From: Parcubacteria group bacterium LiPW_15
Lineage (GTDB): Bacteria; Patescibacteriota; Minisyncoccia; UBA6257; 2-01-FULL-56-20
Reading direction: 5' to 3'
DNA: 47,199 bases
NCBI GenBank assembly: GCA_007375645.1
Contig: VMER01000001.1
Span: 403,576 to 450,774, forward strand
Shown here piece by piece: positions 15,289 to 38,589 of this stretch. Under the pieces are notes generated by a model, which made no database searches, had not been told where the DNA came from, and was given only the letters and a program-made list of their open reading frames with translations. A program made the position numbers and the translations under genes. Numbering within the stretch: the first letter of the stretch is position 1; every line of letters starts with the position of its first letter.

Positions 15289-15317
15289 TTGACAGTTAAT
15301 TAAATATATGGTAGAAT
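15289..15317 (+). promoter_or_regulatory. Near-consensus sigma-70 promoter
   Basis: TTGACA (15289-15294), 17-nt spacer, TAGAAT (15312-15317), preceded by TGg (extended -10). Confidence 0.65.
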
Positions 15318-15376
15318 CTGCGCACGTTAGTTTGCGCGCTCATTTACAACGAAAAACAGAAAGTGAGGACAAAATC

Positions 15377-15802
15377 GTGAAAGTGGCAATGATCACCTAC
15401 AACCCCATCATCGACCACGCGAGGGCTGGCGGCTGGCAGATGTGCGGAACAAACAGCGTTCTGCTGCTACAGGACGCCTTCTATCTGTCGGGGACAAAAG
15501 CAAGGGGTGGCACCGACCCTCTTCTCGACGAGCTCGAGGGCAACCTCTCCGCGCTCGACAAGATCGTGGTCTATCTGGGCGGGCACGATTCAGAAAGAAT
15601 CGTCGAGTTCATCAAGGCAATCGGCGCGGCCCCCGATCGGACGATCTTCCTCGTCTGCGACTGCAACTGGGTAACAAAGATGGAGGCGATCCAGAAGTGC
15701 GGGTTCTCGGGCTCAGAGATGATGGAATGCTGTTGCGGAGGGTTCGAAAAAATGGAGAACATTTATTGGAGTGTCCTCCGCCACGGAACCATCTCCGGCT
15801 AG
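15377..15802 (+). CDS. Hypothetical GC-rich protein with a Cys-rich C-terminus (FLVCDCNW...MMECCCGG)
   Basis: The ORF-track start at 15308 lies inside the promoter. GTG at 15377 follows GAGGA by 7 nt; ATG at 15389 is an alternative. I recognise no domain. Confidence 0.5.
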   Translation: MKVAMITYNPIIDHARAGGWQMCGTNSVLLLQDAFYLSGTKARGGTDPLLDELEGNLSALDKIVVYLGGHDSERIVEFIKAIGAAPDRTIFLVCDCNWVTKMEAIQKCGFSGSEMMECCCGGFEKMENIYWSVLRHGTISG

Positions 15803-20691: not shown

Positions 20692-23600
20692 TTATGTTCC
20701 GGAAGCGTACGCGACGGAATTGACAACCGCAGGAACGACGGTGGCCGGAAGGTTCACAGAGGAACCGGAGCCATCAAGAGCGTTCACGTAGGTTACATCC
20801 GTGGTAGCGTTCACGGTTACAGCCAAGGTCTGGGACACACCATTCGCTCCAGCCGGAGTGTGAGCAAAAGAGTTCACACGCACGTTGAAGGTCTTGGAAG
20901 CGCCAGCGCTCAAGACATAACCGGAAGTTCCGGTACCAATCGTGAAGGTAAAGGTACAAGTACCACCGCTAGTACAAGCTCCAGAAGTAGCAGTACCTTG
21001 TACAACCGCACCAGTAGACGGATCGAAGAGTTTCACATCATCCGCAGCAGCACCGTTGTTGGAGAGGAAGGTCGAAGTCGGCAAGCTACCAGTGATGGTA
21101 AGCTTGACCTGGTTCAACGATACAGATCCAGCATTAGAAGCCGCAAAGGTGATGGTTCCGATGTCGTCAATGGAAGTCTTAGCGCGACCGGAGGTCGAAC
21201 CAAGGCCAGCCACAGACATGGTCATCGCGCTCCTCAACACAGTCTGGGTGTTTCCAACCGGGCTGGACAAAACGTTGGTCGCGCCAGCGTTGGAAGAATT
21301 TCCAAGCGCAGTCACGATAGACGAGGTGGCAGCGTATTCGGTGGAAGTACCAATCAAGAAGGTGCTGGTAGCGTTGTCGGTTGCACCGCCGGAGACGTAA
21401 GAAGCAACATCACCCTTCAAGACCAAAGTCTTGGAAGAAGATTTCGCAACCACAACCGGGGTAGCAAAGTGGAACGCATAGTTGTAACCGGCGCCAGAAG
21501 ACGAAGTCACAAGGTTCGCAGAAGCCACAGCGGAACCAGCCGTTCCGACGGCAGTAGCGCCATCGTACAAGGTGAGGTTACCGAAGGAAGACTTCGTGTT
21601 TGCCGTGTTAGTCGCCACGCGCTGGAAGATTACCAAGTCGGTGATCTTCACGTCCTCAACGTTGGTCGTTTCCGTGAAGCGGAACGAGGCCAAGGAGTTG
21701 CCGGTGGAGCCCATAACGAGCTGACCGGTCGGAGCAGTACCGGAATCGATACCGATCGTGAGGGACGGAGAACCGCCGATGGTCACAACCTGACCAGTCG
21801 CAGCCGTGCAGCTAACGGAGCTGTTCGAAGACGAACCGGTTCCGGTGCAGCTAGACAAAGTCGTAGCGGCGCCGTTCTGGGTTGCGGCATTCGAGAGCAC
21901 GTCGGCATACACGTCAATGATGGTCGTTTGACCAGCCGGAACGGTGAATTGAGTGCCAGAGAAGGTGTAAGAAGTGGTCGCGCTCAAAGTCGAGTACGAA
22001 GTACCGAATTGAGTGGAGCCGATCTTAACAGCCAAGTTCTGGTAGTTCACGTCCGCGCCTGCACCAGTCTGGATAGTAACGTTGGAGATCACCACGCCTT
22101 CCGCCGAAGAGGCGGTCACAGCGTAGGAACCGATCTTCGCGTTAGCAGTGTTCTTGGTGAAGGTCTGAGTACCAACCGCGGAGTTAGCCGCAGTGGTCAC
22201 AGCATTCGCAGCCAAGGACAAGCTGCTTCCGGTTACGGTACCAGTGTTGCTGGTTTGGCTCGAAGTCAAACCCTGCAAGTTGCTGGTGTTGCCAGTTAAA
22301 GCGGCAGTGACGGTAGTGAAAGTCGCGCCAGTCTGGATGTCACCCTTCAAAGACAAGACCCGAGTAGTGTTAGCCGGGATAATGTAGTTGATCGGAGAAC
22401 CAGAGGTGCCGAAACAATCATTGTACACGCCGCCCGCGCTGTAAGCCGCAACGCCAGAACCGGTACAAGTGTTGCTGGAAGGCGGAGTGTTGATGGTCGT
22501 GCCAACTTGGCCGCCAGCATCATCCACCAAGGCAACGTTCTTGATCTGAGTCGTGAGGGTCGAAGTTACGCCAGTGAAAGTCAAGGAGAAATCCAAGAAC
22601 TTCACTTTTACAGCTTCACCAGCCGCGTAGATCTTGAACTTAGCGAGAGTCACGTTGGACTGGCCCTTGGCGAGGTTACCGGTTGGGGTATCGCTAGCCA
22701 AAGAAACGGTCAACTGACCTTGCTGGATGGTTACAACGGCACCAGAACCGCCGTTCACGGTAACCGTGATCGAGCTGTTGTACTGGGTATCAACCGCGTA
22801 AGCATCAAAGGAGTTCAAGAGCTGGAACTGGAAAGTGTAGCTCGGCGAACCCATAACATCGGCGTAAACCTGGAGGTTAGAAGTTCCAGTGTTCAAAACC
22901 GCGTTAGCATTCGTCAAGTCGAAGTACGCATCTCCGCTCGCGTCAACAGAAGTCAAAGTGGAACCCACCTGGGTGCCGTTGACGTAGAGTTTCACGTTCT
23001 GGATGTCGCTCTTGTTAGCGGAACCGGTCACGCGGAACTTCAAGGAAGAAAGCTTCACTTTGGAGTTCGTAACGCTGGCGGACCACTGGGAAACCAAGAC
23101 GTTCTGAGTGCCGGCGAACACAGTGCTGCCGACGGTGGACGAGGTTATCGTCAAACCAGCGAGAGCCGGGTTCGAGACAGTCGAAACAGTCAAGGAGTTA
23201 CCCATGAGCGGGAAAGCTCCAGAAGCGGTGATCGCGGTGTTAGCCGAATCAGCCGCAGTTACATCGCTCGCAGCATTGAGCTTGAAGGAAACGATGTTTC
23301 CGGCAGTAGCGCCAGTCACATCAACCGCAAGCCAAAGTTTCCTGGTCTGACCAGCTCCCACGGACAAGCCGAGGTTGGAGAAGGTGATAACACCCTGGTT
23401 CAAGGAAACGTACTGGGCGACAACCTTGCCGTTTTCAACCAAGTAGGCTCCACCAATGGAGCTATCGGAAACGACACCGGTCTTCGTGAATTTAACCTGG
23501 TTAAGGTTGACAGCGCCCGAGTTACCGGCAGTGAAATTCACAGCCATAACCGGAACGCGGCCAGCGCCGTTAAGCAGGGATCCGGCAACCGGGTTGTCAG

Positions 23601-24078
23601 AGGCCAAGCCTACGGACAAACCAGAAGACGGAACGACAACTCCGCCACCGCCTCCGGAAGGAGGGGTAACAACGCCGCTCATGGAGTTAACATAAGCGCG
23701 GGTCTTAGGACCGAAGTAGCCAGCAGCCGGGGAAATTCCTACAGAAGCCTGAAACTTTCCCAAGGCAGCTTGGGTCATAGAACCGAAGTAGCCAGTCGGG
23801 GCAGCAATGGCGAGGAATCCCTTGTTGATCAACATCTGCTGAAGAGCAGTTACGTCAGCTCCTTTACTACCAAGGGTGAGGTCCGTGGTGAAGTTGTAGG
23901 AACCGGTGGAACCGCTGCCAGAGCCGAGTTGAGATTGCAGCATCTGGATTTGGGCCAGAAGAGCTGCGATCTGCGCCTGCAAGTCCGCAGAGGACTGTGC
24001 AAAAGCAGACGGGGTCGCGCCAACGATACCAACTAAAGTGGCAACGGAGAGCGCAACCGAAATCATTTTCTTACTCAT
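20692..24078 (-). CDS. Large cell-surface (S-layer-like) protein with an N-terminal peptidoglycan-binding domain and repeated beta-sandwich-like modules
   Basis: Signal peptide MSKKMISVALSVATLVGIVGATPSAFA, a coiled-coil segment, then a PG_binding_1-like segment (GSKGADVTALQQMLINKGF...GYFGSMTQAALGKFQ...GYFGPKTRAYV). After that about 900 aa are rich in T/S/A/G/V, with recurring NVxL..F..TG......I.NVKLY..G..VG modules. Confidence 0.7.
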   Translation of the reverse strand: MSKKMISVALSVATLVGIVGATPSAFAQSSADLQAQIAALLAQIQMLQSQLGSGSGSTGSYNFTTDLTLGSKGADVTALQQMLINKGFLAIAAPTGYFGSMTQAALGKFQASVGISPAAGYFGPKTRAYVNSMSGVVTPPSGGGGGVVVPSSGLSVGLASDNPVAGSLLNGAGRVPVMAVNFTAGNSGAVNLNQVKFTKTGVVSDSSIGGAYLVENGKVVAQYVSLNQGVITFSNLGLSVGAGQTRKLWLAVDVTGATAGNIVSFKLNAASDVTAADSANTAITASGAFPLMGNSLTVSTVSNPALAGLTITSSTVGSTVFAGTQNVLVSQWSASVTNSKVKLSSLKFRVTGSANKSDIQNVKLYVNGTQVGSTLTSVDASGDAYFDLTNANAVLNTGTSNLQVYADVMGSPSYTFQFQLLNSFDAYAVDTQYNSSITVTVNGGSGAVVTIQQGQLTVSLASDTPTGNLAKGQSNVTLAKFKIYAAGEAVKVKFLDFSLTFTGVTSTLTTQIKNVALVDDAGGQVGTTINTPPSSNTCTGSGVAAYSAGGVYNDCFGTSGSPINYIIPANTTRVLSLKGDIQTGATFTTVTAALTGNTSNLQGLTSSQTSNTGTVTGSSLSLAANAVTTAANSAVGTQTFTKNTANAKIGSYAVTASSAEGVVISNVTIQTGAGADVNYQNLAVKIGSTQFGTSYSTLSATTSYTFSGTQFTVPAGQTTIIDVYADVLSNAATQNGAATTLSSCTGTGSSSNSSVSCTAATGQVVTIGGSPSLTIGIDSGTAPTGQLVMGSTGNSLASFRFTETTNVEDVKITDLVIFQRVATNTANTKSSFGNLTLYDGATAVGTAGSAVASANLVTSSSGAGYNYAFHFATPVVVAKSSSKTLVLKGDVASYVSGGATDNATSTFLIGTSTEYAATSSIVTALGNSSNAGATNVLSSPVGNTQTVLRSAMTMSVAGLGSTSGRAKTSIDDIGTITFAASNAGSVSLNQVKLTITGSLPTSTFLSNNGAAADDVKLFDPSTGAVVQGTATSGACTSGGTCTFTFTIGTGTSGYVLSAGASKTFNVRVNSFAHTPAGANGVSQTLAVTVNATTDVTYVNALDGSGSSVNLPATVVPAVVNSVAYASGT

Positions 24079-24330
24079 TTATTATTTTTAATCGACCAGT
24101 GCTTTATTTGTTTTCGACATAACAAGCACATGAGTCGACCTTTTGTTTTTTGTATTATTACGCTCGACCTTTTATTTGTTTGAGTTTACTCCGGAAATCC
24201 CGCTCCCCGGCTTTTCGACCATGCTCACCTTTTGTGAGGAAAAGATGAAGATGAACCAAGATGCAGGATGTAATAGCTAATGGATGTAAAACTTGGAAAC
24301 CTAAGGGTGCTTTCCAAGGGGCTTAAAAAC

Positions 24331-24475
24331 GAAAAACTCGCTCTTTTAAGCGAGACTAAAAACAAGGCGGTTATGGTCTATGGTTCCCGTAACTCCGAAA
24401 ACCTATGACCTATCACCCATTCACGATTCCTTGTTCAGCCTCACACTGAACGATTCTTTCGCGGGTTTCTAAACT
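24331..24475 (-). ncRNA. Candidate stand-alone small RNA (about 145 nt) of unknown family
   Basis: TTGACA (24511-24506), 18-nt spacer, TAAACT (24487-24482) on the minus strand. Transcript ends at hairpin CTCGCT/AGCGAG (24337-24354) followed by T5. No ORF with a start signal. Confidence 0.4.
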
Positions 24476-24603
24476 TGATTCAGTTTAGCTTTTCCGCCCA
24501 TTTTCTGTCAAATGCAGGAGCTCTTTCTGGCTCCGATCAAACTGCTAACTAAGGTAACGTTAATACCCCTAAAAGGTTACTTTTTGCGCCATAGGTATCT
24601 GAC

Positions 24604-25299
24604 TTATGCGGAGACCGCAACCGCCACCCGATAAGAGGTCGCCGGGCCGCTCTGCCCTACCCTCTCAATAAGTCCTTGTTCGGACAAACGTTCTAAATCA
24701 TATCGCAAGGTTCTTTCACTCACCTCCGGAAATCCCTCTATAATATCTTTCATTCGGCAATTGCCGGATTGCCGAATTCTTTGCAGAATTGCCGATTGCC
24801 GAATTGCCGCTTGCGGGGAAACTTGGCGCTCGGTTTGCGGCTCGGCTGGCTCCACGGCCTCTTCGGAATTAGTTATGGCCTCAAGCTCTTTATTTATCAC
24901 CTCCGGCGGAATCTCCTTCTTTTGAATGTCAGCCGTAAGCTTAGTCCCCCGTTCGGTTCCACTAGAAAAATTCAATTTGATGGGTTCAATGTTTCCGGCA
25001 ATGGCATTATATCCGGCAATTGCCGAATTAAGATTGCCGATTTCTAAAACCAACATTTCCACGTTGCTCTGATGGATAAGCCCGGTGTCTCCGCCAAGGC
25101 GGAGATAGTATTCCAAAATTTTGGCTTCGGCGTTTGCCGCATTCATATTGCCGTAAATTGCCGAATCGAAAAGCGAAAGGCAATGGTTTTCCAGGTATCC
25201 CGCAATCGGACGATTGCCGATATTGCCGGATAGCCGGAACATCGCATAAGCGATCTCATAAGCCTTCTTTTCGATTTGCCGAATTTGTTCGTTTTTCAT
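24604..25299 (-). CDS. DeoR-like winged-helix transcriptional regulator with a helical N-terminal domain
   Basis: C-terminal wHTH ILQRIRQSGNCRMKDIIEGFPEVSERTLRYDLERLSEQGLIERVG. The N-terminal 110 aa are predicted helical and four-helix-bundle-like by eye. Confidence 0.7.
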   Translation of the reverse strand: MKNEQIRQIEKKAYEIAYAMFRLSGNIGNRPIAGYLENHCLSLFDSAIYGNMNAANAEAKILEYYLRLGGDTGLIHQSNVEMLVLEIGNLNSAIAGYNAIAGNIEPIKLNFSSGTERGTKLTADIQKKEIPPEVINKELEAITNSEEAVEPAEPQTERQVSPQAAIRQSAILQRIRQSGNCRMKDIIEGFPEVSERTLRYDLERLSEQGLIERVGQSGPATSYRVAVAVSA

Positions 25300-25350
25300 T
25301 GCCGGATTAGTACGCCCAGTATATCCCTTGCCGGATTATGGAGTCAATAA

Positions 25351-25379
25351 TTGACCGAGGGTTAAATACCTGATAAATT
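25351..25379 (+). promoter_or_regulatory. Promoter of cassette A1
   Basis: TTGACC, 17-nt spacer, TAAATT with TGa extended -10. Homologous in sequence to the A2 promoter, including the TTGTCGG just downstream. Confidence 0.55.
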
Positions 25380-25419
25380 GTCGGTAGCGCTGAATTCCAA
25401 AAAGAGGAGGAGGAAAGTC

Positions 25420-25650
25420 ATGCAGACCGTGAACAAGCTCATCGACGTCAAGCCCTGGTGCCTGAACGCCAAGCCGGGCGATGCGAGGGTCTTCTCTGTC
25501 AGAGAGGAAGTCACACAGGAAACAGCCTCGGCATTCATCCACAAAGTGAACCAGGAACGCGGTCGGATCAACAACGTCTGGGTGGTCGTCGAATCGTTCG
25601 CCTGCGCTCCCGAACCGACGACCAGGATCCGCGTCCACTGCTCGCGCTGA
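25420..25650 (+). CDS. Small protein A1 (76 aa), unknown family, paralog of A2
   Basis: ATG preceded by AGAGGAGGAGGAAAGTC. Shares WCL.AKPG...VF.V....TQ..ASAF and a C-terminal R(I/V)HC with A2. Confidence 0.65.
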   Translation: MQTVNKLIDVKPWCLNAKPGDARVFSVREEVTQETASAFIHKVNQERGRINNVWVVVESFACAPEPTTRIRVHCSR

Positions 25651-25681
25651 CCCCCATATCTCTTCAATCTCCAGCCCTTCC

Positions 25682-25706
25682 GCCGCCCTCCCGGGCGGCC
25701 TTTTTT
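25682..25706 (+). terminator. Intrinsic terminator (cassette type)
   Basis: GCCGCCC-TCCC-GGGCGGC followed by CTTTTTT. Confidence 0.8.
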
Positions 25707-25734
25707 ATTCTTTGCCGGATTGCCAAGCCAGTAA

Positions 25735-25763
25735 TTGACCAAAATTAAAATACTTGGTAGTTT
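25735..25763 (+). promoter_or_regulatory. Promoter of cassette A2
   Basis: TTGACC, 17-nt spacer, TAGTTT with TGg extended -10. Confidence 0.55.
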
Positions 25764-25796
25764 GTCGGAGGTATTGAAGCTAGGGAAGGAGAAGGA

Positions 25797-26042
25797 ATGG
25801 TGAACATCGTGAAGACCATCGCCGGAGCCGAACTCTGGTGCCTGAGCGCCAAACCGGGCGCCATGGAAGTCTTTTACGTGAACGCGCGCATCACCCAAGC
25901 CGAGGCTTCGGCTTTCGCTGGCCAGACGAACAAGAAGCGCGCCGAGATTCGCATCGAAGGCCGCATCACGGCGACCGTCGAAAGGACAGTGAGCGTTCTC
26001 GGCGGCTCGACGACCCAGCTCCGCATCCACTGTTTGTTCTGA
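25797..26042 (+). CDS. Small protein A2 (81 aa), paralog of A1
   Basis: SD GGGAAGGAGAAGGA abuts the ATG. Alignment with A1 is clear by eye. Confidence 0.65.
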   Translation: MVNIVKTIAGAELWCLSAKPGAMEVFYVNARITQAEASAFAGQTNKKRAEIRIEGRITATVERTVSVLGGSTTQLRIHCLF

Positions 26043-26060
26043 GCCTCTCACCCTCCCTCT

Positions 26061-26096
26061 GCCGCCTCCCCAGGGCGGCCTTTTTTTATTTTTTTC
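26061..26096 (+). terminator. Intrinsic terminator (cassette type)
   Basis: GCCGCC-TCCCCAG-GGCGGC followed by a long T run. Confidence 0.8.
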
Positions 26097-26123
26097 AAAA
26101 GTTTTGCCGAATTGCCGAATTAA

Positions 26124-26151
26124 TTGACAATCCGGCAATCCCGAATATCCT
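26124..26151 (+). promoter_or_regulatory. Putative promoter of cassette B
   Basis: TTGACA, 16-nt spacer, TATCCT. The -10 is weak. A CGGCAA motif copy sits inside the spacer. Confidence 0.35.
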
Positions 26152-26182
26152 TATACCCAGTAACGCGGAAAGGAGTGCGAAA

Positions 26183-26467
26183 ATGCAACGCGCGCTAAGA
26201 ATTCGGCTCAAAGGCAGTCCAGTCGAAATCTGGCGCCTTGCGAACAACCGGGATCTGATACCCGAGAGGGTCATTGAGGAATTCAGCGACAAGTCCTTCT
26301 ATCTGAACCCGAACTGCGAAAGGTGGATCGAAGGCGGAACCCTCTATATCTTATTCCCCCGGATAGACGCTCTCCCGGGGGAAAAAGCTCTCCAGGGCAA
26401 GCTGGTCGCTTCCCTCCCTGCCGTGTGTGTTCAGGAGCTAGGTTTCGTATATCGCCCCAATGGCTGA
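26183..26467 (+). CDS. Small protein B1 (94 aa), unknown family, paralog of B2
   Basis: ATG at 26183 after GGAAAGGAG. The track's longer 25838 start runs through A2 and a terminator. Shares YLN..CE.W...G..Y..FP...AL.GE....GKLV with B2. Confidence 0.65.
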   Translation: MQRALRIRLKGSPVEIWRLANNRDLIPERVIEEFSDKSFYLNPNCERWIEGGTLYILFPRIDALPGEKALQGKLVASLPAVCVQELGFVYRPNG

Positions 26468-26482
26468 TTGAAAGGAGCACCG

Positions 26483-26764
26483 ATGCAATATTTCTTCAGG
26501 ATCCAGGTCGCCGACACGTTCGCAAACGCTTTGGCCTTCGCTGAGAAGCATCCGACCCTCGGCAGGGTCACCGAAGCCATCTGCGAGGACACGATCTACC
26601 TGAACCAGGATTGCGAGATGTGGGTGACCAGCGGAATCGTCTACGTCTTCTTCCCGAATGTGGAGGCCCTTTCCGGGGAGACCTCCAGGCGGGGCAAGCT
26701 GGTCATCCTCCTCCGCACCGAGGAAATGCGCGAGTGCGGGCATGTCTGGCGTTTCGACGTCTGA
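26483..26764 (+). CDS. Small protein B2 (93 aa), paralog of B1
   Basis: ATG at 26483 after GAAAGGAG. 15 nt downstream of the B1 stop. Confidence 0.65.
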   Translation: MQYFFRIQVADTFANALAFAEKHPTLGRVTEAICEDTIYLNQDCEMWVTSGIVYVFFPNVEALSGETSRRGKLVILLRTEEMRECGHVWRFDV

Positions 26765-26778
26765 GCGCCCCTCTCTCT

Positions 26779-26804
26779 GCCGCCCTCCCGGGCGGCCTTT
26801 TTTT
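26779..26804 (+). terminator. Intrinsic terminator (cassette type)
   Basis: GCCGCCC-TCCC-GGGCGGC followed by CTTTTTTT. Same sequence as 25682-25706. Confidence 0.8.
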
Positions 26805-27030
26805 CCAAAATTTATGGCGCTCCGAATACCTTGCCCGAATAGTTATGCACAGCTTGACACCTATAGGTATTTTGACGAAAAAAGTTGCCGGATGTCCGGC
26901 CCAGCCCACGACTTGTTGATAAAGAATGTTGTTCCTTATTTATAGTGAGAGTAAACCCCCACACCTAATGGGAAATTTATCCTCAGATGGGTTCTTGTCC
27001 CCCATTAGGTGTGGGGGTAAACTTTAGAAA

Positions 27031-27561
27031 ATGACTGAAAACGAGGACTCGCTTCTCTCCCAGCAAGTCGCCCCAGAACTGAAAACCAATCGCCGCAAAA
27101 TGAAGATCGCTTTTATAGCGATAATTTTTTTGGCGCTCTTGGCGCTTATCGGAAACGGTGTCTACAGATATTGGCTGGCCATTAACTCGGCCGCGCAATA
27201 CGAAAAAGATTTAGCGGCGACCATGGCTGCAGAAAGAGAAGCAAAAATGGCCGATACCTATGGCGGCTCTACCCCGGCCGAAACGCTTCAACTATATATA
27301 GATGCACTCAAGAAGAATGATTTTGAATTAGCGAGTAAATACTTTATAGAGAAAAACCGAGATGCACAACATAAAAAAATAGTTGCCTTTGGTGAAAAAA
27401 AACTTATAACTTATGCAGGCAACCTAGAGATTTTATATAAAAATATACTCAAAGGAAGCGGCGCCTACTCTGACGATAAGCTTGAATTCGTAACCGACAA
27501 GCCATTTTTTGCAGACTTTGCATTATACCCCAATAATATTTGGAAAATAACAGAAATATAA
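27031..27561 (+). CDS. Membrane-anchored hypothetical protein
   Basis: 176 aa with TM IAFIAIIFLALLALIGNGVY. AT-rich. The start could instead be the internal MKIAF. Confidence 0.5.
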   Translation: MTENEDSLLSQQVAPELKTNRRKMKIAFIAIIFLALLALIGNGVYRYWLAINSAAQYEKDLAATMAAEREAKMADTYGGSTPAETLQLYIDALKKNDFELASKYFIEKNRDAQHKKIVAFGEKKLITYAGNLEILYKNILKGSGAYSDDKLEFVTDKPFFADFALYPNNIWKITEI

Positions 27562-27564
27562 AAG

Positions 27565-30500
27565 ATGTTCCGCAAAGCGTTTGCGGTTTCCTTTTTTCTT
27601 TTTCTCATCGCTGGTCGCGCCCTAGCTTATAACGACCGGACAACCCATCCCGCGCTAACCGGAGAAATTTTAGATTTCGTCGGCGGGTTCACCGCCGAAG
27701 AACGGGGTTGGATAGTTGAAGGAAGCAAGCTGGAAGACTTCGCCCCTCGCTGGATAAACCATTTTTATGACCCTATAAACAATACTAGCTGGACCGGCGC
27801 TAAAGCCAGTGGAATCCCCGCAGACACATTGCGAACCATGGCCGCCATAGGCGCAACCGATCCCCTCCCCGCCACAAGCTGGATAAAAGGATGCAACACA
27901 CAATCCGCTTATTTCGCGAACGGCGGAAACCGCGTCTGGGAAAGCGCCCTACAGGCCTATTCTGAGGGCAATCTTAAAGAAGCCTACACGACCCTCGGCC
28001 ACATTTTGCACATTGAAGAAGATCTGTCCGTTCCAGACCATACCCGCGACGACACTCACGCCCAAAATCTCGGCGGGGATGATGGTAGCCCCTATGAGCA
28101 ATATGCGAGCAAATACACGCCCGATACCATAAAATCATTAAATATCGCGGGGAGTTTAAAATCCTCAGGCATGTCACCGGCGAAATTCAGTTCGCCCGAA
28201 GAATATCTTGTGGCAATGGCCGTTTATTCCAACAAATATTTCTTTTCCAAGGATACTATAAATGACCCGCGTTACCCGGAACCAAAAATAATTGCTGAAA
28301 ACGATACTTTCGTTTATGGAAAAGATGAAAATGGCACGAATTTCCCAATTGCCTCGGTATCGAATTTCGCCGACAACAACGAAAATTATTTTTTGAGGAA
28401 CGTATCACCATACTCCTCCATCCTCGACTCCTATTTCTATCGCTTATCTAGACAAGCGGTCCTAAATGGCGCAGGGCTTGTCACCCTTTTTAAAAAACAG
28501 GCTGAAGACGCCAAGGTTAACCAAGAATTTTTTGTGGACGATAGACATACGCTTGCCAAAATTGCCTGCAAAACCGGAGATGTAGCCGGCAAGTTCACCA
28601 CCATGGGACTTATTTCCTATATCGGCCAAGGGGCAAGTTCTGCCTTGGGCCAAATCGCCGACACCGCCAGTTCCGCTTGGAACTTTTTTGTCGGCTTATT
28701 CAAAAAATCCTCGCCTCAATCCACCGAAATCGCCGACAATACCGAAGGGGTCGGCACATCTCTCCCGCCCAACACACAAGACTTCCTCACAAATAATACG
28801 GACCTCACGCTTCCTCCGACACTCCCTCCTCCGCCGAAACCGACGGCTCCGAAAGCGACGACCACTCTGCCCGTAGCACCGACCAGCACCGCACCGACAA
28901 TCGCCGCAACCACAACCTCGGCAGCTAAGTTAGCACTAAACAAGCTGCCCGTCCTCCCTCCTCCCCCGAAACCCACGAATCCAAACGGATCAACCGGTGG
29001 AGGCGGCGGTACCGTTGGCGTTCAACCCACCCCAACGTCAACCGATATACAAGCGACAACCACGCCCACGTCTCTCGCAGATCATGTATTAATAAGCGAA
29101 ATATTTTTCAATGCCGACGGTTCCGATGCCGGGAAAGAGTTTGTGGAACTTTATAATCCATCCGATTCCGCAAAAAACCTGGATGGTTGCGCGCTAAAAT
29201 ATATTGCGGAAAATTCTACAACCACTCATTCGCTTGCGACAATCCGCGCGACCACTACCGAAATTTCTATAATTCCTGCGCATGGTTTTTTGTTGCTCGG
29301 CTTCGGAGGGTATGATTCGCAAAATTATGGAGGTAGGGCAGCCGACGTAACCCGCACAGCGTCCGTTCCCAACGGCGAAGATGTTCATAGCACCCCACAG
29401 AAAATTAAGCTTGGTTTCTTTGACGAAACCAAGCAGGAAATTGATTCTGTTGTCTATGATAAAAATTCTATAACCGCACCCGGGGAAAGTTTGGAGCGCT
29501 TAGCGTTTGACGGCACATGTAAGCCCGCAACCGGTTTGGGAGAATTTTTAGGAAATGGCTGCTCAACCGGCGAAAAACAATTTGAATCCAAACGCATTCC
29601 CCGCCCCCAAAATTCCACGAGTCTTCCCGAACCTCGCCAAGCCCCAACCACACCAACACTCGCCGGCGGGACAACTTCTATTGCAAACTATTTCCCGGAT
29701 ACTCTGAAAATTAGTTTTGAGTGGAAAAATTCTCTTGATTTTTCCGGTACCTCCACGGAAATAACGTATAAACTTTTTGACGCATCAAGCTCGACCTCTC
29801 TACTCGTCTCAACCTCGACCGCCACCTCCACCGAAAGAAATATTGGCGAGGTCGGCAGATCCTATGATCATGCCTTGGTTGCTGAAGATCGAGATGGCAT
29901 GCCCTCCGCCACAACCACCATGACTACAAATGTTCCCGGATTCGTGGATAAAATATTTTTCTACCGCAACCCGCGTTCTTCGAGCACACCGAATAGCGTT
30001 AATTTGGAGGTGCGATATTCCAAGCGTCCGTTTATCCCCCAGCTCCTTTCGGGCGGACTCAATTGGCAAGGACTACTTTTTTATTCTAATCGCGCGGCAA
30101 ATAATAAAAATGGAAGTCTTACGCTCTCAGGAAACTATGCCCCGACGGATGCCAGCGGAACGATTCCCGTAACTACTCGCGGTCCAGCCTTATTCGGCCT
30201 GTCTCCGGAAAATTCCAAAGGTTTCGGTCCCGGCCTCTACAATTTTAGTTTCTTCCTCCCCGAGGAAGATGGCCGGCTGGTTCTTGGGGCGACGCTTCCA
30301 GCGGAAGCCACCTCTACGGATTACGCCACAATCGCTTATTATGACGCCTTAAATACCGGTGGCATCGCTCTCCCGCCCGGAGAAAACGACTTTGGCCTGA
30401 TTGCGACCGACGCAAGAAAAATAATGTTGGCTGAATTGCCACCGGAACAAACTCCGCCTAGTAGGCCAGAAAATATTTCATTAAACTTTGACGAAAACCT

Positions 30501-31206
30501 GACTAAGCTGAATTTATTCTGGTCGACATCTACCGATGCAGATAGTCTTGATTCGGAAATAACATACGAAACCAACTTTTCTACATCTACAGAACTCTCT
30601 ACTTCGACCTGGACATTGCAAGGAAAAACTGATTCCGCCTCAATAGATGTCATCCCAGGAAATACTTATATGGTAGGCGCGAGAGCAATCGATGATTTTG
30701 GCAACGCTTCTGAAGCCAATACCATATTTTGGAATTTCCCTGATGGGTATAAACCCGCAGTTATGAGTGGGTCACTCACTGCGGCTTCTCAAGATTTTAT
30801 CGCGCAAACAGACGCGAATGTTAGCGAAATCAACATCTATACAACTGCTTTTTCAAAACGGCGTGACTGGCCACCTCCGCCGATAAATCCTTGCGGCATA
30901 TCATTTTTTGAGGTGAATACCAGTAGCACAATTTCTCTCCTTGGCTCGTCAAACACATACGAAGATGAAGCTTGCGCCGGAGCTCCTCTCAAATTTACTT
31001 TTTCTTCGCCGATTCCGCTCCTCGCCGGCCACACCTATCGCTGGCAATTCAACTTAAGCGGAGGAAGTAATTATTTTGGCTATCCAACCGTTAAATTCTA
31101 TGGTCGAACCGAGAATAACTTGGGTGGACCTTTCAGCGACCCGTCGCTCGCCAGCGCAAAATTCAGTCTTAAAGATACATCTGGAGGCATTGTGATCGAT
31201 AACTGA
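27565..31206 (+). CDS. Giant secreted multidomain protein: zinc-dependent phospholipase C/P1-nuclease-like N-terminal domain, Pro/Thr linker, lamin-tail domain (LTD), FN3-like modules
   Basis: Signal peptide MFRKAFAVSFFLFLIAGRALA. LGHILHIEEDLSVPDHTRDD resembles the Zn-binding H..D...P.H motif. PPPPKPT linkers. LISEIFFNADGSDAGKEFVELYNPSDSAKNLDGCAL is a typical LTD signature. PSRPENISLNFDENLTKLNLFWSTSTD...GNTYMVGARAIDDFGN is FN3-like. Confidence 0.6.
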   Translation: MFRKAFAVSFFLFLIAGRALAYNDRTTHPALTGEILDFVGGFTAEERGWIVEGSKLEDFAPRWINHFYDPINNTSWTGAKASGIPADTLRTMAAIGATDPLPATSWIKGCNTQSAYFANGGNRVWESALQAYSEGNLKEAYTTLGHILHIEEDLSVPDHTRDDTHAQNLGGDDGSPYEQYASKYTPDTIKSLNIAGSLKSSGMSPAKFSSPEEYLVAMAVYSNKYFFSKDTINDPRYPEPKIIAENDTFVYGKDENGTNFPIASVSNFADNNENYFLRNVSPYSSILDSYFYRLSRQAVLNGAGLVTLFKKQAEDAKVNQEFFVDDRHTLAKIACKTGDVAGKFTTMGLISYIGQGASSALGQIADTASSAWNFFVGLFKKSSPQSTEIADNTEGVGTSLPPNTQDFLTNNTDLTLPPTLPPPPKPTAPKATTTLPVAPTSTAPTIAATTTSAAKLALNKLPVLPPPPKPTNPNGSTGGGGGTVGVQPTPTSTDIQATTTPTSLADHVLISEIFFNADGSDAGKEFVELYNPSDSAKNLDGCALKYIAENSTTTHSLATIRATTTEISIIPAHGFLLLGFGGYDSQNYGGRAADVTRTASVPNGEDVHSTPQKIKLGFFDETKQEIDSVVYDKNSITAPGESLERLAFDGTCKPATGLGEFLGNGCSTGEKQFESKRIPRPQNSTSLPEPRQAPTTPTLAGGTTSIANYFPDTLKISFEWKNSLDFSGTSTEITYKLFDASSSTSLLVSTSTATSTERNIGEVGRSYDHALVAEDRDGMPSATTTMTTNVPGFVDKIFFYRNPRSSSTPNSVNLEVRYSKRPFIPQLLSGGLNWQGLLFYSNRAANNKNGSLTLSGNYAPTDASGTIPVTTRGPALFGLSPENSKGFGPGLYNFSFFLPEEDGRLVLGATLPAEATSTDYATIAYYDALNTGGIALPPGENDFGLIATDARKIMLAELPPEQTPPSRPENISLNFDENLTKLNLFWSTSTDADSLDSEITYETNFSTSTELSTSTWTLQGKTDSASIDVIPGNTYMVGARAIDDFGNASEANTIFWNFPDGYKPAVMSGSLTAASQDFIAQTDANVSEINIYTTAFSKRRDWPPPPINPCGISFFEVNTSSTISLLGSSNTYEDEACAGAPLKFTFSSPIPLLAGHTYRWQFNLSGGSNYFGYPTVKFYGRTENNLGGPFSDPSLASAKFSLKDTSGGIVIDN

Positions 31207-31267: not shown

Positions 31268-32017
31268 TCAGGCGGCCAGAACCCTCCTGATTTTGGAAAA
31301 GATCGCGTCACCGACCTTGGGAATTGGTTTGTTGCCGTCCACGAGCTCGATGGGTCCGAAGTAGTGGGTGTCGCTGCCGAATTCCCAAACCTTTTCGTAG
31401 GCCGCAGCCGTCCGCTTGATTCCCTCCTCGGTCTCGAAGACGTTCTTGACCTTGCCATCCTTCGCGAAGCGTTCCGCGGCAACTTCGGGCGGAAGCGCCA
31501 TGTAAACCGTGAGCGCGGGAGTAACATAGCTCTTGCCCAGGACACGGTAGTGCCAATGGGCCAGATCCCCCAACTCCACTCCATGAGCAAGCCCGAAGGC
31601 GAAGGTCGATGGCGAGTAACGGTCGCAAATGATGTTCTCTCCATCCGCGAGGCGCGGGCGAAGAACATTCACACAGTGCCAGAGCCGGTCCGCCATGAAG
31701 ATGATCTGCATGCCGAGAACCGATACGGGCTGGCGTCCCGAGATGGTCCTTAAGACCGAAGCAACCCTGTCCCGGACCTCGGGCTTATCGGCTAAGAGCT
31801 TCGCGGCGGCGGTGTTGGCTTCGATGCAGGGCACGTCCCCCAGCCGCTTCTCGATGACCGCCCTGATGACTCGGCCAAACGGCCCCGAAGTTGGTTCCGC
31901 GTCGCAGGCAATGCGATGGCCGAGATCGGCGATCCTCATTGCCGCGACCTTTGCCTGCATGGTTTTGCCGGAACTGATCCCCTCGAGCAGTATGAGTCTC
32001 CCGGTTTTTATTTTCAT
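31268..32017 (-). CDS. tmk: Thymidylate (dTMP) kinase family protein
   Basis: P-loop LLEGISSGKT, DAEPTSGPFGRVIR, FMADRLWH and ICDRYSPSTFAF match the Tmk motif order. Strong SD GGAGGAGGG. GC-rich. Confidence 0.7.
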   Translation of the reverse strand: MKIKTGRLILLEGISSGKTMQAKVAAMRIADLGHRIACDAEPTSGPFGRVIRAVIEKRLGDVPCIEANTAAAKLLADKPEVRDRVASVLRTISGRQPVSVLGMQIIFMADRLWHCVNVLRPRLADGENIICDRYSPSTFAFGLAHGVELGDLAHWHYRVLGKSYVTPALTVYMALPPEVAAERFAKDGKVKNVFETEEGIKRTAAAYEKVWEFGSDTHYFGPIELVDGNKPIPKVGDAIFSKIRRVLAA

Positions 32018-34286: not shown

Positions 34287-34682
34287 CTAGAACCCGTAGA
34301 CGGCCCAGCCCGCGGCCTTTACGGCTGCGAGGAGAGTTCCACCCTTCGAGGCGAAGATAAGCCGAAGCTCGGTCTTCCCGTCGGGCAACGGAGTGACCTG
34401 GAGGAGACCGCACATGCCGGAGACCGAACGCGCAGCCCAGGAACCGTCCGACTTCTCTTCGTAGAACGAGAGCGGGTAGTCCCCGCCGTCGGGGTCATCG
34501 GTGGCCTGAAACTCAGCGTGAGCCCGGACCTCCTCAATGGAGGCAGAGACGAACTCTACCGGGTACGCCTCCCCGGTAACAGAGGCTTCGAACAGGTGAA
34601 GCTTCTGCTCCCAGGACTTCACGCCCCGAAAAGCGTTGCGAAAACCTGCGAAATCCGACACGACGATCTTGGCCTCGTACAT
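34287..34682 (-). CDS. Hypothetical GC-rich 131-aa protein
   Basis: Long ORF with a plausible globular composition. Preceded by a roughly 200-nt structured leader and a consensus promoter. Followed by compound hairpin 34211-34250. Confidence 0.55.
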   Translation of the reverse strand: MYEAKIVVSDFAGFRNAFRGVKSWEQKLHLFEASVTGEAYPVEFVSASIEEVRAHAEFQATDDPDGGDYPLSFYEEKSDGSWAARSVSGMCGLLQVTPLPDGKTELRLIFASKGGTLLAAVKAAGWAVYGF

Positions 34683-38430: not shown

Positions 38431-38589
38431 TCAGGACATCAAAATTGCAACGGATGCGAAAAGCACGACTCCGAGGACCGCGTCACCCTTCCACGACCTG
38501 CCGTGACGCCGCTCCAAGAACGCGCACATGAGCTTGGAACCCGCGAGGGCGCCGACGAGTGCCGGCAAGTACCACGGAATTATGGGCAT
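38431..38589 (-). CDS. Unannotated 52-aa hydrophobic peptide (two predicted TM segments)
   Basis: Found by eye, below the track cutoff. SD GAGAGGAGAAAGAA abuts the ATG at 38589. MPIIPWYLPALVGALAGSKLMCAFLERRHGRSWKGDAVLGVVLFASVAILMS. Terminator GCCGCCCG-AAT-CGGGCGGC at 38403-38421 plus a T run. Confidence 0.5.
   Translation of the reverse strand: MPIIPWYLPALVGALAGSKLMCAFLERRHGRSWKGDAVLGVVLFASVAILMS

Follow-up and report, generated by a model that had tools for sequence, protein, structure and literature searches.

The Omega repressor of the omega-epsilon-zeta system (pSM19035 family) acts through repeats of 7-9 bp. These form direct and inverted arrays at its own promoter and at the promoters of adjoining small genes, which are controlled in a coordinated way. 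From a different field comes the observation that parS sites occur inside the parB (spo0J) coding sequence. Bacteria of the candidate phyla radiation (CPR) have, to our knowledge, very few regulators and almost no characterised regulons. Here we describe a locus of Parcubacteria group bacterium LiPW_15, where a DeoR-type regulator gene and four divergently oriented small genes (A1, A2, B1 and B2) lie amid many copies of one short motif. The DNA analysed is a stretch of 47,199 nucleotides (contig VMER01000001.1, positions 403,576 to 450,774 of the forward strand), called the window below. Coordinates are window positions unless another locus is named; loci fetched for comparison carry L numbers, and proteins found in searches P numbers.

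An earlier sequence-only reading of this DNA saw the small genes as a duplicated, co-regulated and strongly expressed accessory module. Our own reading, to which we assign a probability of roughly 55%, is that the block holds clade-specific accessory small-protein genes with a fast turnover. These occupy a variable slot next to a regulator conserved in Paceibacteria, and would be partly wired into its circuit. What is new here is the conserved variable slot, the divergence between strains at the level of single cassettes, and a class-wide motif signature within the regulator coding sequence.

Results

The regulator gene and its motif

The regulator gene (24604-25299, minus strand) encodes 231 amino acids (aa): a conserved N-terminal helical domain, a variable linker and a C-terminal DeoR-type winged helix. 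Pfam recognises the latter (PF08220 HTH_DeoR, E 1.1e-9, residues 167-214, above the gathering score). This is not the layout of the DeoR family, as the helix-turn-helix (HTH) is C-terminal rather than N-terminal. The protein gave no match to the DeoRC effector domain, and NCBIfam equivalogs match the HTH only, far below their cut-offs. A PDB sequence profile search with the regulator returned nothing usable, and no description of the regulator or its motif was found in the literature. More than 380 full-length homologs come from Paceibacteria, Liptonbacteria, Minisyncoccia and other Patescibacteria.

The motif is TTGCCGRAT, or A-TTGCCGRAT-T when extended. It is present 18 times in the window, where 1.46 copies are expected, and 16 of these 18 lie within 24752-26893. 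The sequence-only reading treated it as a feature of the cassettes. That description does not hold, given that around ten copies of ATTGCCGRATT are inside the regulator coding sequence, including 18-bp palindromes at 24752-24769 and 25011-25028.

A survey of 87 non-redundant regulator loci, with regulators 30-100% identical in protein sequence to that of the window, found 6.6 copies per kb in the regulator coding sequence versus 0.05 per kb in flanks more than 1.5 kb away. The 250 nt upstream of the regulator hold about one copy per locus. Individual regulator genes (window and L003-L092) contain 4-13 copies of ATTGCCGRATT, in both orientations and in several reading frames. The TTGCCGGATT motif is thus a signature of the regulator gene itself across Paceibacteria, which the earlier reading had overlooked.

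Codon use tells more. For the tripeptide SGN, 70 of 100 occurrences use TCCGGCAAT, and for IRQ about 50 of 76 use ATCCGGCAA, where background codon use predicts some 3% for each; IAG is encoded as ATTGCCGGA in 23 of 33. Judged by these frequencies, the intragenic copies are maintained by synonymous codon choice. The variable linker of the regulator consists in part of repeated (S)PQAxIRQS peptides, which are encoded by the repeated motif.

The motif also sits in the promoter of the regulator (25347-25299, minus strand). Between the -35 box TTGACT (25347-25342) and the -10 box TATACT (25323-25318), the spacer contains ATCCGGCAA at 25336-25328, and a second copy touches the start codon (25307-25299). 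Orthologs in the clade of the window have the same layout. For most of the family, the regulator promoter has TTGCAA or TTGACT joined to TATAAT by the 17-nt spacer TTGCCGGATTGCCGGAT. Only about 8 nt separate TATAAT from the ATG, which suggests that the regulator mRNA is leaderless.

ATTGCCGRATT is over-represented at the regulator's own promoter and at its putative target promoters, and is conserved across species, as is typical of an operator. We infer that it would be the operator of the regulator, and that the regulator gene would be autorepressed.

Cassette architecture

The four small genes are all on the plus strand and form two paralogous pairs. A1 (25420-25650, 76 aa) and A2 (25797-26042, 81 aa) are 36% identical (E 2e-15), and B1 (26183-26467, 94 aa) and B2 (26483-26764, 93 aa) are 34% identical (E 9e-19). 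BLASTP and the open reading frame (ORF) coordinates here agree with the sequence-only reading, which had the same pairs at the same positions. Both families consist of soluble proteins, of about 8.7 kDa in A and about 10.8 kDa in B. A remote relationship between the two families was ruled out by BLASTP and by hhalign profile-profile comparison.

There are three insulated transcription units, not four: A1, A2, and a B1-B2 operon. Each has a putative sigma-70-like promoter, a strong Shine-Dalgarno (SD) sequence and a near-identical intrinsic terminator. Strong expression, as put forward in the sequence-only reading, would be a prediction from the strength of these consensus elements. B1 and B2 are 15 nt apart, with the SD of B2 at 26471-26477 and no terminator between them.

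Promoters were sought as -35 and -10 hexamers spaced 16-18 nt apart upstream of a unit. The A1 and B promoters pass this sigma-70 consensus scan, and their architecture is conserved among orthologs. In the A1 promoter and leader (25328-25419, plus strand) the motif (25328-25336) is followed by TTGACC (25351-25356), a 17-nt spacer, TAAATT with TG before it (25371-25379), and the SD AGAGGAGGAGG (25403-25413).

The A2 promoter and leader (25712-25796, plus strand) start with the motif and a degenerate tandem copy (25712-25729). Then come TTGACC (25735-25740), TGgTAGTTT (25755-25763) and the SD GGAAGGAGAAGG (25784-25795). The -10 of A2 has the TG extension but is weak; it is absent from the scan list and was read from the sequence by eye. 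Over 63 nt, the A2 promoter region matches that of A1 at 73% identity (repeat family D4). The element TTGTCGG, earlier listed as part of the A cassettes, has been dropped, as orthologous A cassettes do not conserve it.

The promoter-operator module of the B operon (26104-26182, plus strand) is more elaborate. A tandem motif (26104-26120) precedes the -35 box TTGACA (26124-26129). The 16-nt spacer is filled by the inverted motif ATCCGGCAA (26130-26138) and a degenerate tandem copy that runs to 26145, directly before the -10 box TATCCT (26146-26151). The SD is at 26168-26175.

The three terminators, at 25682-25706 (A1, -16 kcal/mol), 26061-26087 (A2) and 26779-26804 (B operon), are on the plus strand. 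Each folds into a hairpin with the stem GCCGCC(C)-loop-(G)GGCGGC followed by a T-run. With 7-bp stems, 6-7 T, folding energies of -13 to -16 kcal/mol and z-scores of -2.7 to -4.6, they are Rho-independent terminators. Both their near-identity and the SD strings are as described before.

The remaining terminator-like hairpins of the window are heterogeneous, and just one (38421-38403) has the cassette stem. It belongs to a 52-aa ORF (38431-38589, minus strand) downstream of an Fpg/MutM-like gene. This ORF has two hydrophobic segments, a strong SD and a G+C content at third codon positions (GC3) of 0.75, and its terminator reads GCCGCCCG-ATT-CGGGCGGC.

A conserved promoter design in B units

The B-type design, in which TTGACA is directly followed by ATCCGGCAA and a degenerate tandem copy that take up the spacer before TATCCT, is not confined to the window. 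It recurs in L004 (two promoters, one of them degenerate), L006 and L013, and as a degenerate copy in L003. Taken as a whole, the B module hardly differs in L004, and L003, L006 and L013 conserve it as well. In the window and L004 a second tandem pair in the opposite orientation lies 3 nt upstream of the -35, so that the -35 is at the centre of an inverted repeat.

The coding sequences diverge to 35-45% identity, yet the promoters keep this design. That is the best evidence that the B units are probably repressed together with the regulator gene. Co-regulation, as claimed by the sequence-only reading, is very probable for the B unit, which has the motif in the promoter spacer across five genomes.

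The A promoters are different. They follow TTGAC[CT]-14 nt-TGnTAnnTT, with a spacer free of the motif, and this design is conserved in L001, L011 and L014. In the window the motif is found 5-15 nt upstream of the -35 of the A promoters, where the copy next to A1 belongs to the back-to-back regulator promoter.

A variable slot

The cassettes occupy a slot bordered on one side by the divergent regulator. On the other side are a protein of 175-176 aa with an N-terminal membrane anchor and an LTD-domain protein of 1,045-1,213 aa. The far side of the regulator has a surface protein of about 1,130 aa with a PG_binding_1 domain. From genome to genome the slot contains between 0 and 4 small genes, whose number and identity vary between close relatives.

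For example, L010 has no small gene, L008 one B, and L009 an unrelated 92-aa membrane, Cys-rich ORF. L003 and L006 each have a pair consisting of a B and a divergent B' subtype (B'-B), L004 has such a pair plus a third B, L014 has one A, and L011 one interrupted A. The window has A1, A2 and B1-B2.

A and B genes are found only in genomes that possess this slot. A local iteration of hidden Markov model (HMM) searches over all fetched loci places B or B' genes in L003 (2 genes), L004/L005 (3), L006 (2), L008 (1) and L013 (1). Family A is present in the window (2) and, outside it, in three other genomes only: the sister strain L001/L002 (1), L014 (1) and L011 (1, interrupted).

In the L011 gene (4469-4723 of that locus, minus strand), one in-frame TAG stands in place of the conserved Ser of the ASAF motif. 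Its frame, promoter, SD and terminator are otherwise intact; this could be a recent pseudogene or an error of sequencing.

Larger searches add little to this. A word-indexed search of 5.8 billion proteins yielded one additional A protein and zero additional B proteins. When every protein among 1.84 billion representatives was searched by HMMER with the B profile, the only matches were P0127-P0129, which come from three syntenic contigs already reached via the regulator, and P0126. The latter is regarded as spurious, being a 518-aa tandem-repeat protein that matches via eight short stretches. Metagenome and viral contigs, phage genomes and plasmids were scanned as well, with no further A or B members.

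Both families are paralogous, confined to one small clade and variable in number, which bears out the words "duplicated" and "accessory" in the sequence-only reading. It also suggested checking whether homologs always co-occur with the regulator type and the motif. The regulator does adjoin every copy, and the motif is present in the B-type promoters; the A promoters are taken up in the Discussion.

Family B and its promoter-operator module are kept across genomes with regulators 59-85% identical in protein sequence to that of the window, and family A across genomes where this identity is only about 50%.

Selection and divergence between strains

The sister strain is available as short contigs (L001/L002 and L093), which cover the regulator, A1, the start of the A2 promoter, the 3' end of A2, B1 and B2. 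Synonymous (dS) and nonsynonymous (dN) divergence were computed against it. For A1, dS is 0.46 and dN 0.09 (dN/dS 0.20), and its ortholog P0003 is 83% identical. The 3' part of A2 (43 codons) has dS 0.10 and dN 0.02 (dN/dS 0.21). B1 has dS 0.24 and dN 0.015 (dN/dS 0.06), and B2 dS 0.14 and dN 0.067 (dN/dS 0.47).

With dN/dS of 0.06-0.47, all four are genuine genes under purifying selection. The sequence-only reading had named the lack of such selection as a result that would count against it, and this did not materialise. Across species, B orthologs have dN/dS of 0.2-0.4. Diversifying selection in halves of the B protein was considered and dropped, as dN/dS never exceeds 1.

The regulator has dS 0.045 and dN 0 against the sister strain, and the synonymous divergence of the small genes is 2-10 times that of this adjoining gene. 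For the same genome pairs, B orthologs have dN of 0.19-0.58 versus 0.07-0.08 for the regulator.

The divergence has a sharp edge. The 1.67 kb upstream of 25370 are 99.2% identical between the strains. From 25376, in the -10 of the A1 promoter, identity falls to about 85%, stays there through the A1 terminator, and recovers in the A2 promoter. The pattern looks as if a divergent allele had replaced the A1 cassette body, and less like relaxed constraint.

Base composition

The cassette block has 55-63% GC versus 41-47% in its immediate flanks, and so is GC-rich, as the sequence-only reading had it. GC3 is 0.81, 0.80, 0.64 and 0.84 for A1, A2, B1 and B2, versus 0.42-0.62 for most genes of the window. 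This is not the codon bias of high expression, because the genes for L11 (0.50) and NusG (0.57) have ordinary values. Three further genes have a GC3 of 0.71-0.77 (15308-15802, 31268-32017 and 34287-34682), two without a Pfam match and one encoding thymidylate kinase. GC3-rich genes thus form a minority class in this genome that goes beyond the cassettes.

Protein families

Pfam, NCBIfam, PHROGs and PADLOC gave no usable match for any of the four proteins, nor did Pfam for ten members of family B, and PDB sequence profile searches with A and B found nothing. No 19-residue hydrophobic stretch is present in the four proteins (maximum Kyte-Doolittle value 1.14). The lack of a recognisable domain and of a transmembrane segment, both noted before, is thereby borne out.

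Adjacent small genes in one operon are a trait of type II toxin-antitoxin systems. B1-B2 have this trait, with a single terminator after B2. Their proteins did not match any such family in Pfam, NCBIfam or PADLOC, and the partners are paralogous rather than from different families. A relation of B to AbrB/MazE was rejected, as hhalign against an AbrB/MazE alignment gave a probability of 0.4%. Also not found was a consistent pairing of acidic and basic charges in B'/B pairs.

No toxin domain was identified adjoining the cassettes. For defence or anti-defence functions, PADLOC and PHROGs gave nothing significant, and the flanks are core chromosomal. Searches of viral contigs, phages and plasmids returned no matches, and a phage or plasmid origin of the cassettes was rejected on that ground. 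The sequence-only reading counted effector- or immunity-type proteins of an episymbiont among its candidates; these searches spoke neither for nor against such a role.

The AlphaFold model of A1 has a predicted local distance difference test (pLDDT) of 81, a predicted template modelling (pTM) score of 0.69 and the topology beta-alpha-beta-alpha-beta-beta. C14 and C74 are invariant in family A. IF3-C, Alba and SpoVS recur among the non-significant Foldseek matches of this model and fit its topology, which makes them a lead only.

Surroundings of the slot

The surrounding 47 kb are ordinary chromosome, with GyrB, HU, L11, NusG, a sigma factor, Tmk and an ABC transporter. In most Paceibacteria (L015-L092, for example L016, L020 and L054) the regulator is part of a conserved run: ClpB (about 880 aa), a membrane protein (about 250 aa), a nucleotidyltransferase (about 265 aa), the regulator, and the PG_binding_1 surface protein (about 1,140 aa). 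The clade of the window keeps the pair of regulator and surface protein (surface gene at 20692-24078 in the window). There, the small-gene slot, the 176-aa protein and the LTD protein have taken the place of the genes upstream of the regulator. The giant LTD proteins of the window (27565-31206) and of L003 (879-4472 of that locus) are mostly alike, with the last 150 or so residues unrelated.

The leader of the 176-aa gene contains an insertion of about 70 nt (26950-27023). Its ends are perfect inverted repeats of 17 nt (CCCCCACACCTAATGGG; some 23 nt at 91%), with a TAAAC repeat on both sides of the insertion. It is absent from the orthologous site in L004 and has no second copy in the window. 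It looks like a miniature inverted-repeat element. An Rfam search of 23800-27400 gave a lone sub-threshold chance match, to a microRNA model, over this insertion.

Between the regulator stop and the start of the giant PG_binding_1 gene lie 525 intergenic nt (24079-24603), with two differences from the sister strain. The minus strand has a promoter-like site (24511-24482) and then a terminator-like hairpin (24354-24337), well 5' of the start codon. The region has no Rfam match and could be a long regulated leader.

Discussion

If the block is indeed an accessory module partly tied to the conserved regulator, its working could be as follows. The adjoining winged HTH protein would bind ATTGCCGRATT. 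The motif fills the spacer between -35 and -10 in the regulator promoter and in all B-type promoters, and in the B promoter of the window also brackets the -35; because of these positions, bound regulator would keep RNA polymerase out. Repression and release of the B1-B2 operon would then go hand in hand with those of the regulator gene. The A cassettes, with their extended -10 promoters and motif-free spacers, would be modulated weakly or not at all. No catalytic or DNA-binding signature is seen in the A and B proteins; the best guess is that they bind a partner stoichiometrically. B1 and B2 may work as a hetero-oligomer, as may the B'/B pairs of other genomes.

Several results weigh against this account. 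The A promoters of L011 and L014 have no motif nearby, and this makes co-regulation of family A uncertain. Together with the position of the motif upstream of the -35 in the window, it leaves the claim of co-regulation weak for A, and the term "regulon" may be right for B alone. What ties the regulator to the motif is their co-localisation and the usual logic of autoregulation, and a different protein might be the one that binds the motif. As processes behind the high GC3 and the raised synonymous divergence, recombination with divergent alleles, foreign origin and biased gene conversion are candidates. Neither family offers a functional clue. Foldseek searches with the A model found nothing significant in PDB (best E 0.27) or BFVD (best E 0.013), with TM-scores of at most 0.63, and the B model (pLDDT 53) is too poor for a meaningful fold search.

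The genes could also be conflict-type genes, be it immunity or anti-toxin-like factors or factors of defence and anti-defence. They would be kept in a hot spot by genes for surface and host interaction, and exchanged between strains. Several features of the slot fit this: orphan families in tandem paralogs with a variable copy number, an interrupted copy in L011, atypical GC3, and tightly linked B'/B and B1/B2 pairs. The 2-10-fold synonymous divergence relative to the regulator, with its sharp break at 25376 in the A1 -10, and the differing C-terminus of the giant LTD protein between the window and L003 can be read in the same way. However, PADLOC, PHROGs, Pfam and NCBIfam have no matches for the proteins, phages and plasmids have none either, and the chromosomal surroundings (GyrB, HU, L11, NusG, sigma factor) are ordinary. 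The paired genes are mutual paralogs, unlike toxin-antitoxin partners. In addition, they lie upstream of the giant gene, where immunity genes usually lie downstream, and dN/dS is below 1 wherever tested. We consider this explanation unlikely.

An equally small chance is given to the idea that A, B or both bind the N-terminal domain of the regulator, which has no recognisable ligand-sensing fold. As anti-repressors or co-repressors, they would make the locus a self-contained feedback module. It would explain why A and B strictly adjoin the regulator in every genome that has them, and why B units share its promoter design; the regulator also lacks the C-terminal sensor domain of DeoR. Yet most Paceibacteria have the regulator without A or B, with ClpB, the membrane protein and the nucleotidyltransferase as its upstream neighbours, and in the close relative L010 the slot is empty.

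A more adventurous idea, which we hold to be quite improbable, is that the slot is a hot spot of cassette exchange. Promoter-operator modules and terminators would serve as homology arms for the swapping of "cassette bodies", A and B would be new folds that tune a class-wide regulator, and the regulator gene would itself form an array of sites bound by its own product, from which a larger nucleoprotein complex might be nucleated. The jump from 99.2% to about 85% identity, extending from the A1 -10 through the A1 terminator, fits such an exchange.

Least probable is that the small genes are cargo, either newly acquired or in decay, which is translated but mostly dispensable and lies next to the regulator by chance: the empty slot of L010, the in-frame stop in the A gene of L011, the unrelated small ORF of L009 and the atypical GC3 would suit this, but all four genes are under purifying selection, B persists with its promoter-operator module at 59-85% regulator identity, and A persists at around 50%.

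Under the preferred reading, an accessory module partly wired into a conserved circuit, the locus gives a concrete candidate operator and promoter design for one regulator conserved in Paceibacteria. It would also show a route by which lineage-specific orphan genes join a conserved regulatory circuit. Two narrow families of small proteins are of limited immediate importance, while being clean candidates for work on expression, interaction and structure. An intragenic operator array that is apparently held in place by synonymous codons is unusual, and may be of wider interest.

Comparison with known systems

Integron cassettes are similarly compact single-ORF modules in tandem that vary between strains. 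They consist of a promoterless ORF with an attC site, and come with an integrase with attI and Pc. The units described here, unlike attC cassettes, each have their own promoter and Rho-independent terminator. The scanned neighbours are the regulator, a transmembrane protein, and the LTD and PG-binding proteins; there is no integrase among these, and the rest of the window was not exhaustively searched for one.

Operons of anti-CRISPR and anti-CRISPR-associated (Aca) genes also combine small, fast-evolving orphan proteins and a strong promoter with an adjacent HTH autorepressor that acts via repeats in the promoter. An aca gene is downstream in the same operon, in a phage or mobile context. The regulator here is divergent and chromosomal across the class, and no mobile-element genes or phage matches were found.

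With the autoregulated DeoR repressor of E. coli, the regulator shares the DeoR winged helix, several operators around promoters and a probable autorepression that overlaps the core promoter. It differs in that its HTH is C-terminal, without a DeoRC sugar-phosphate sensor domain, and in that the putative operator is repeated 4-13 times in its own coding sequence, apparently kept there by codon choice. Also, DeoR controls a catabolic operon, whereas the candidate targets here are orphan small proteins.

Like Omega, the protein described here is a separate small regulator with short repeat arrays at its own promoter and at those of adjacent small genes. Omega is a plasmid ribbon-helix-helix protein, and its targets are a known toxin-antitoxin pair and partition and copy-control genes. 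This locus in contrast has a chromosomal winged HTH protein and paralogous pairs without a toxin signature.

The likeness to parS and parB is that the recognition site, its palindromic form included, lies within the gene of the presumed DNA-binding protein itself. Unlike ParB, the regulator has no ParB domain. Furthermore, the motif also occupies promoter spacers, which argues for transcriptional control rather than chromosome partition.

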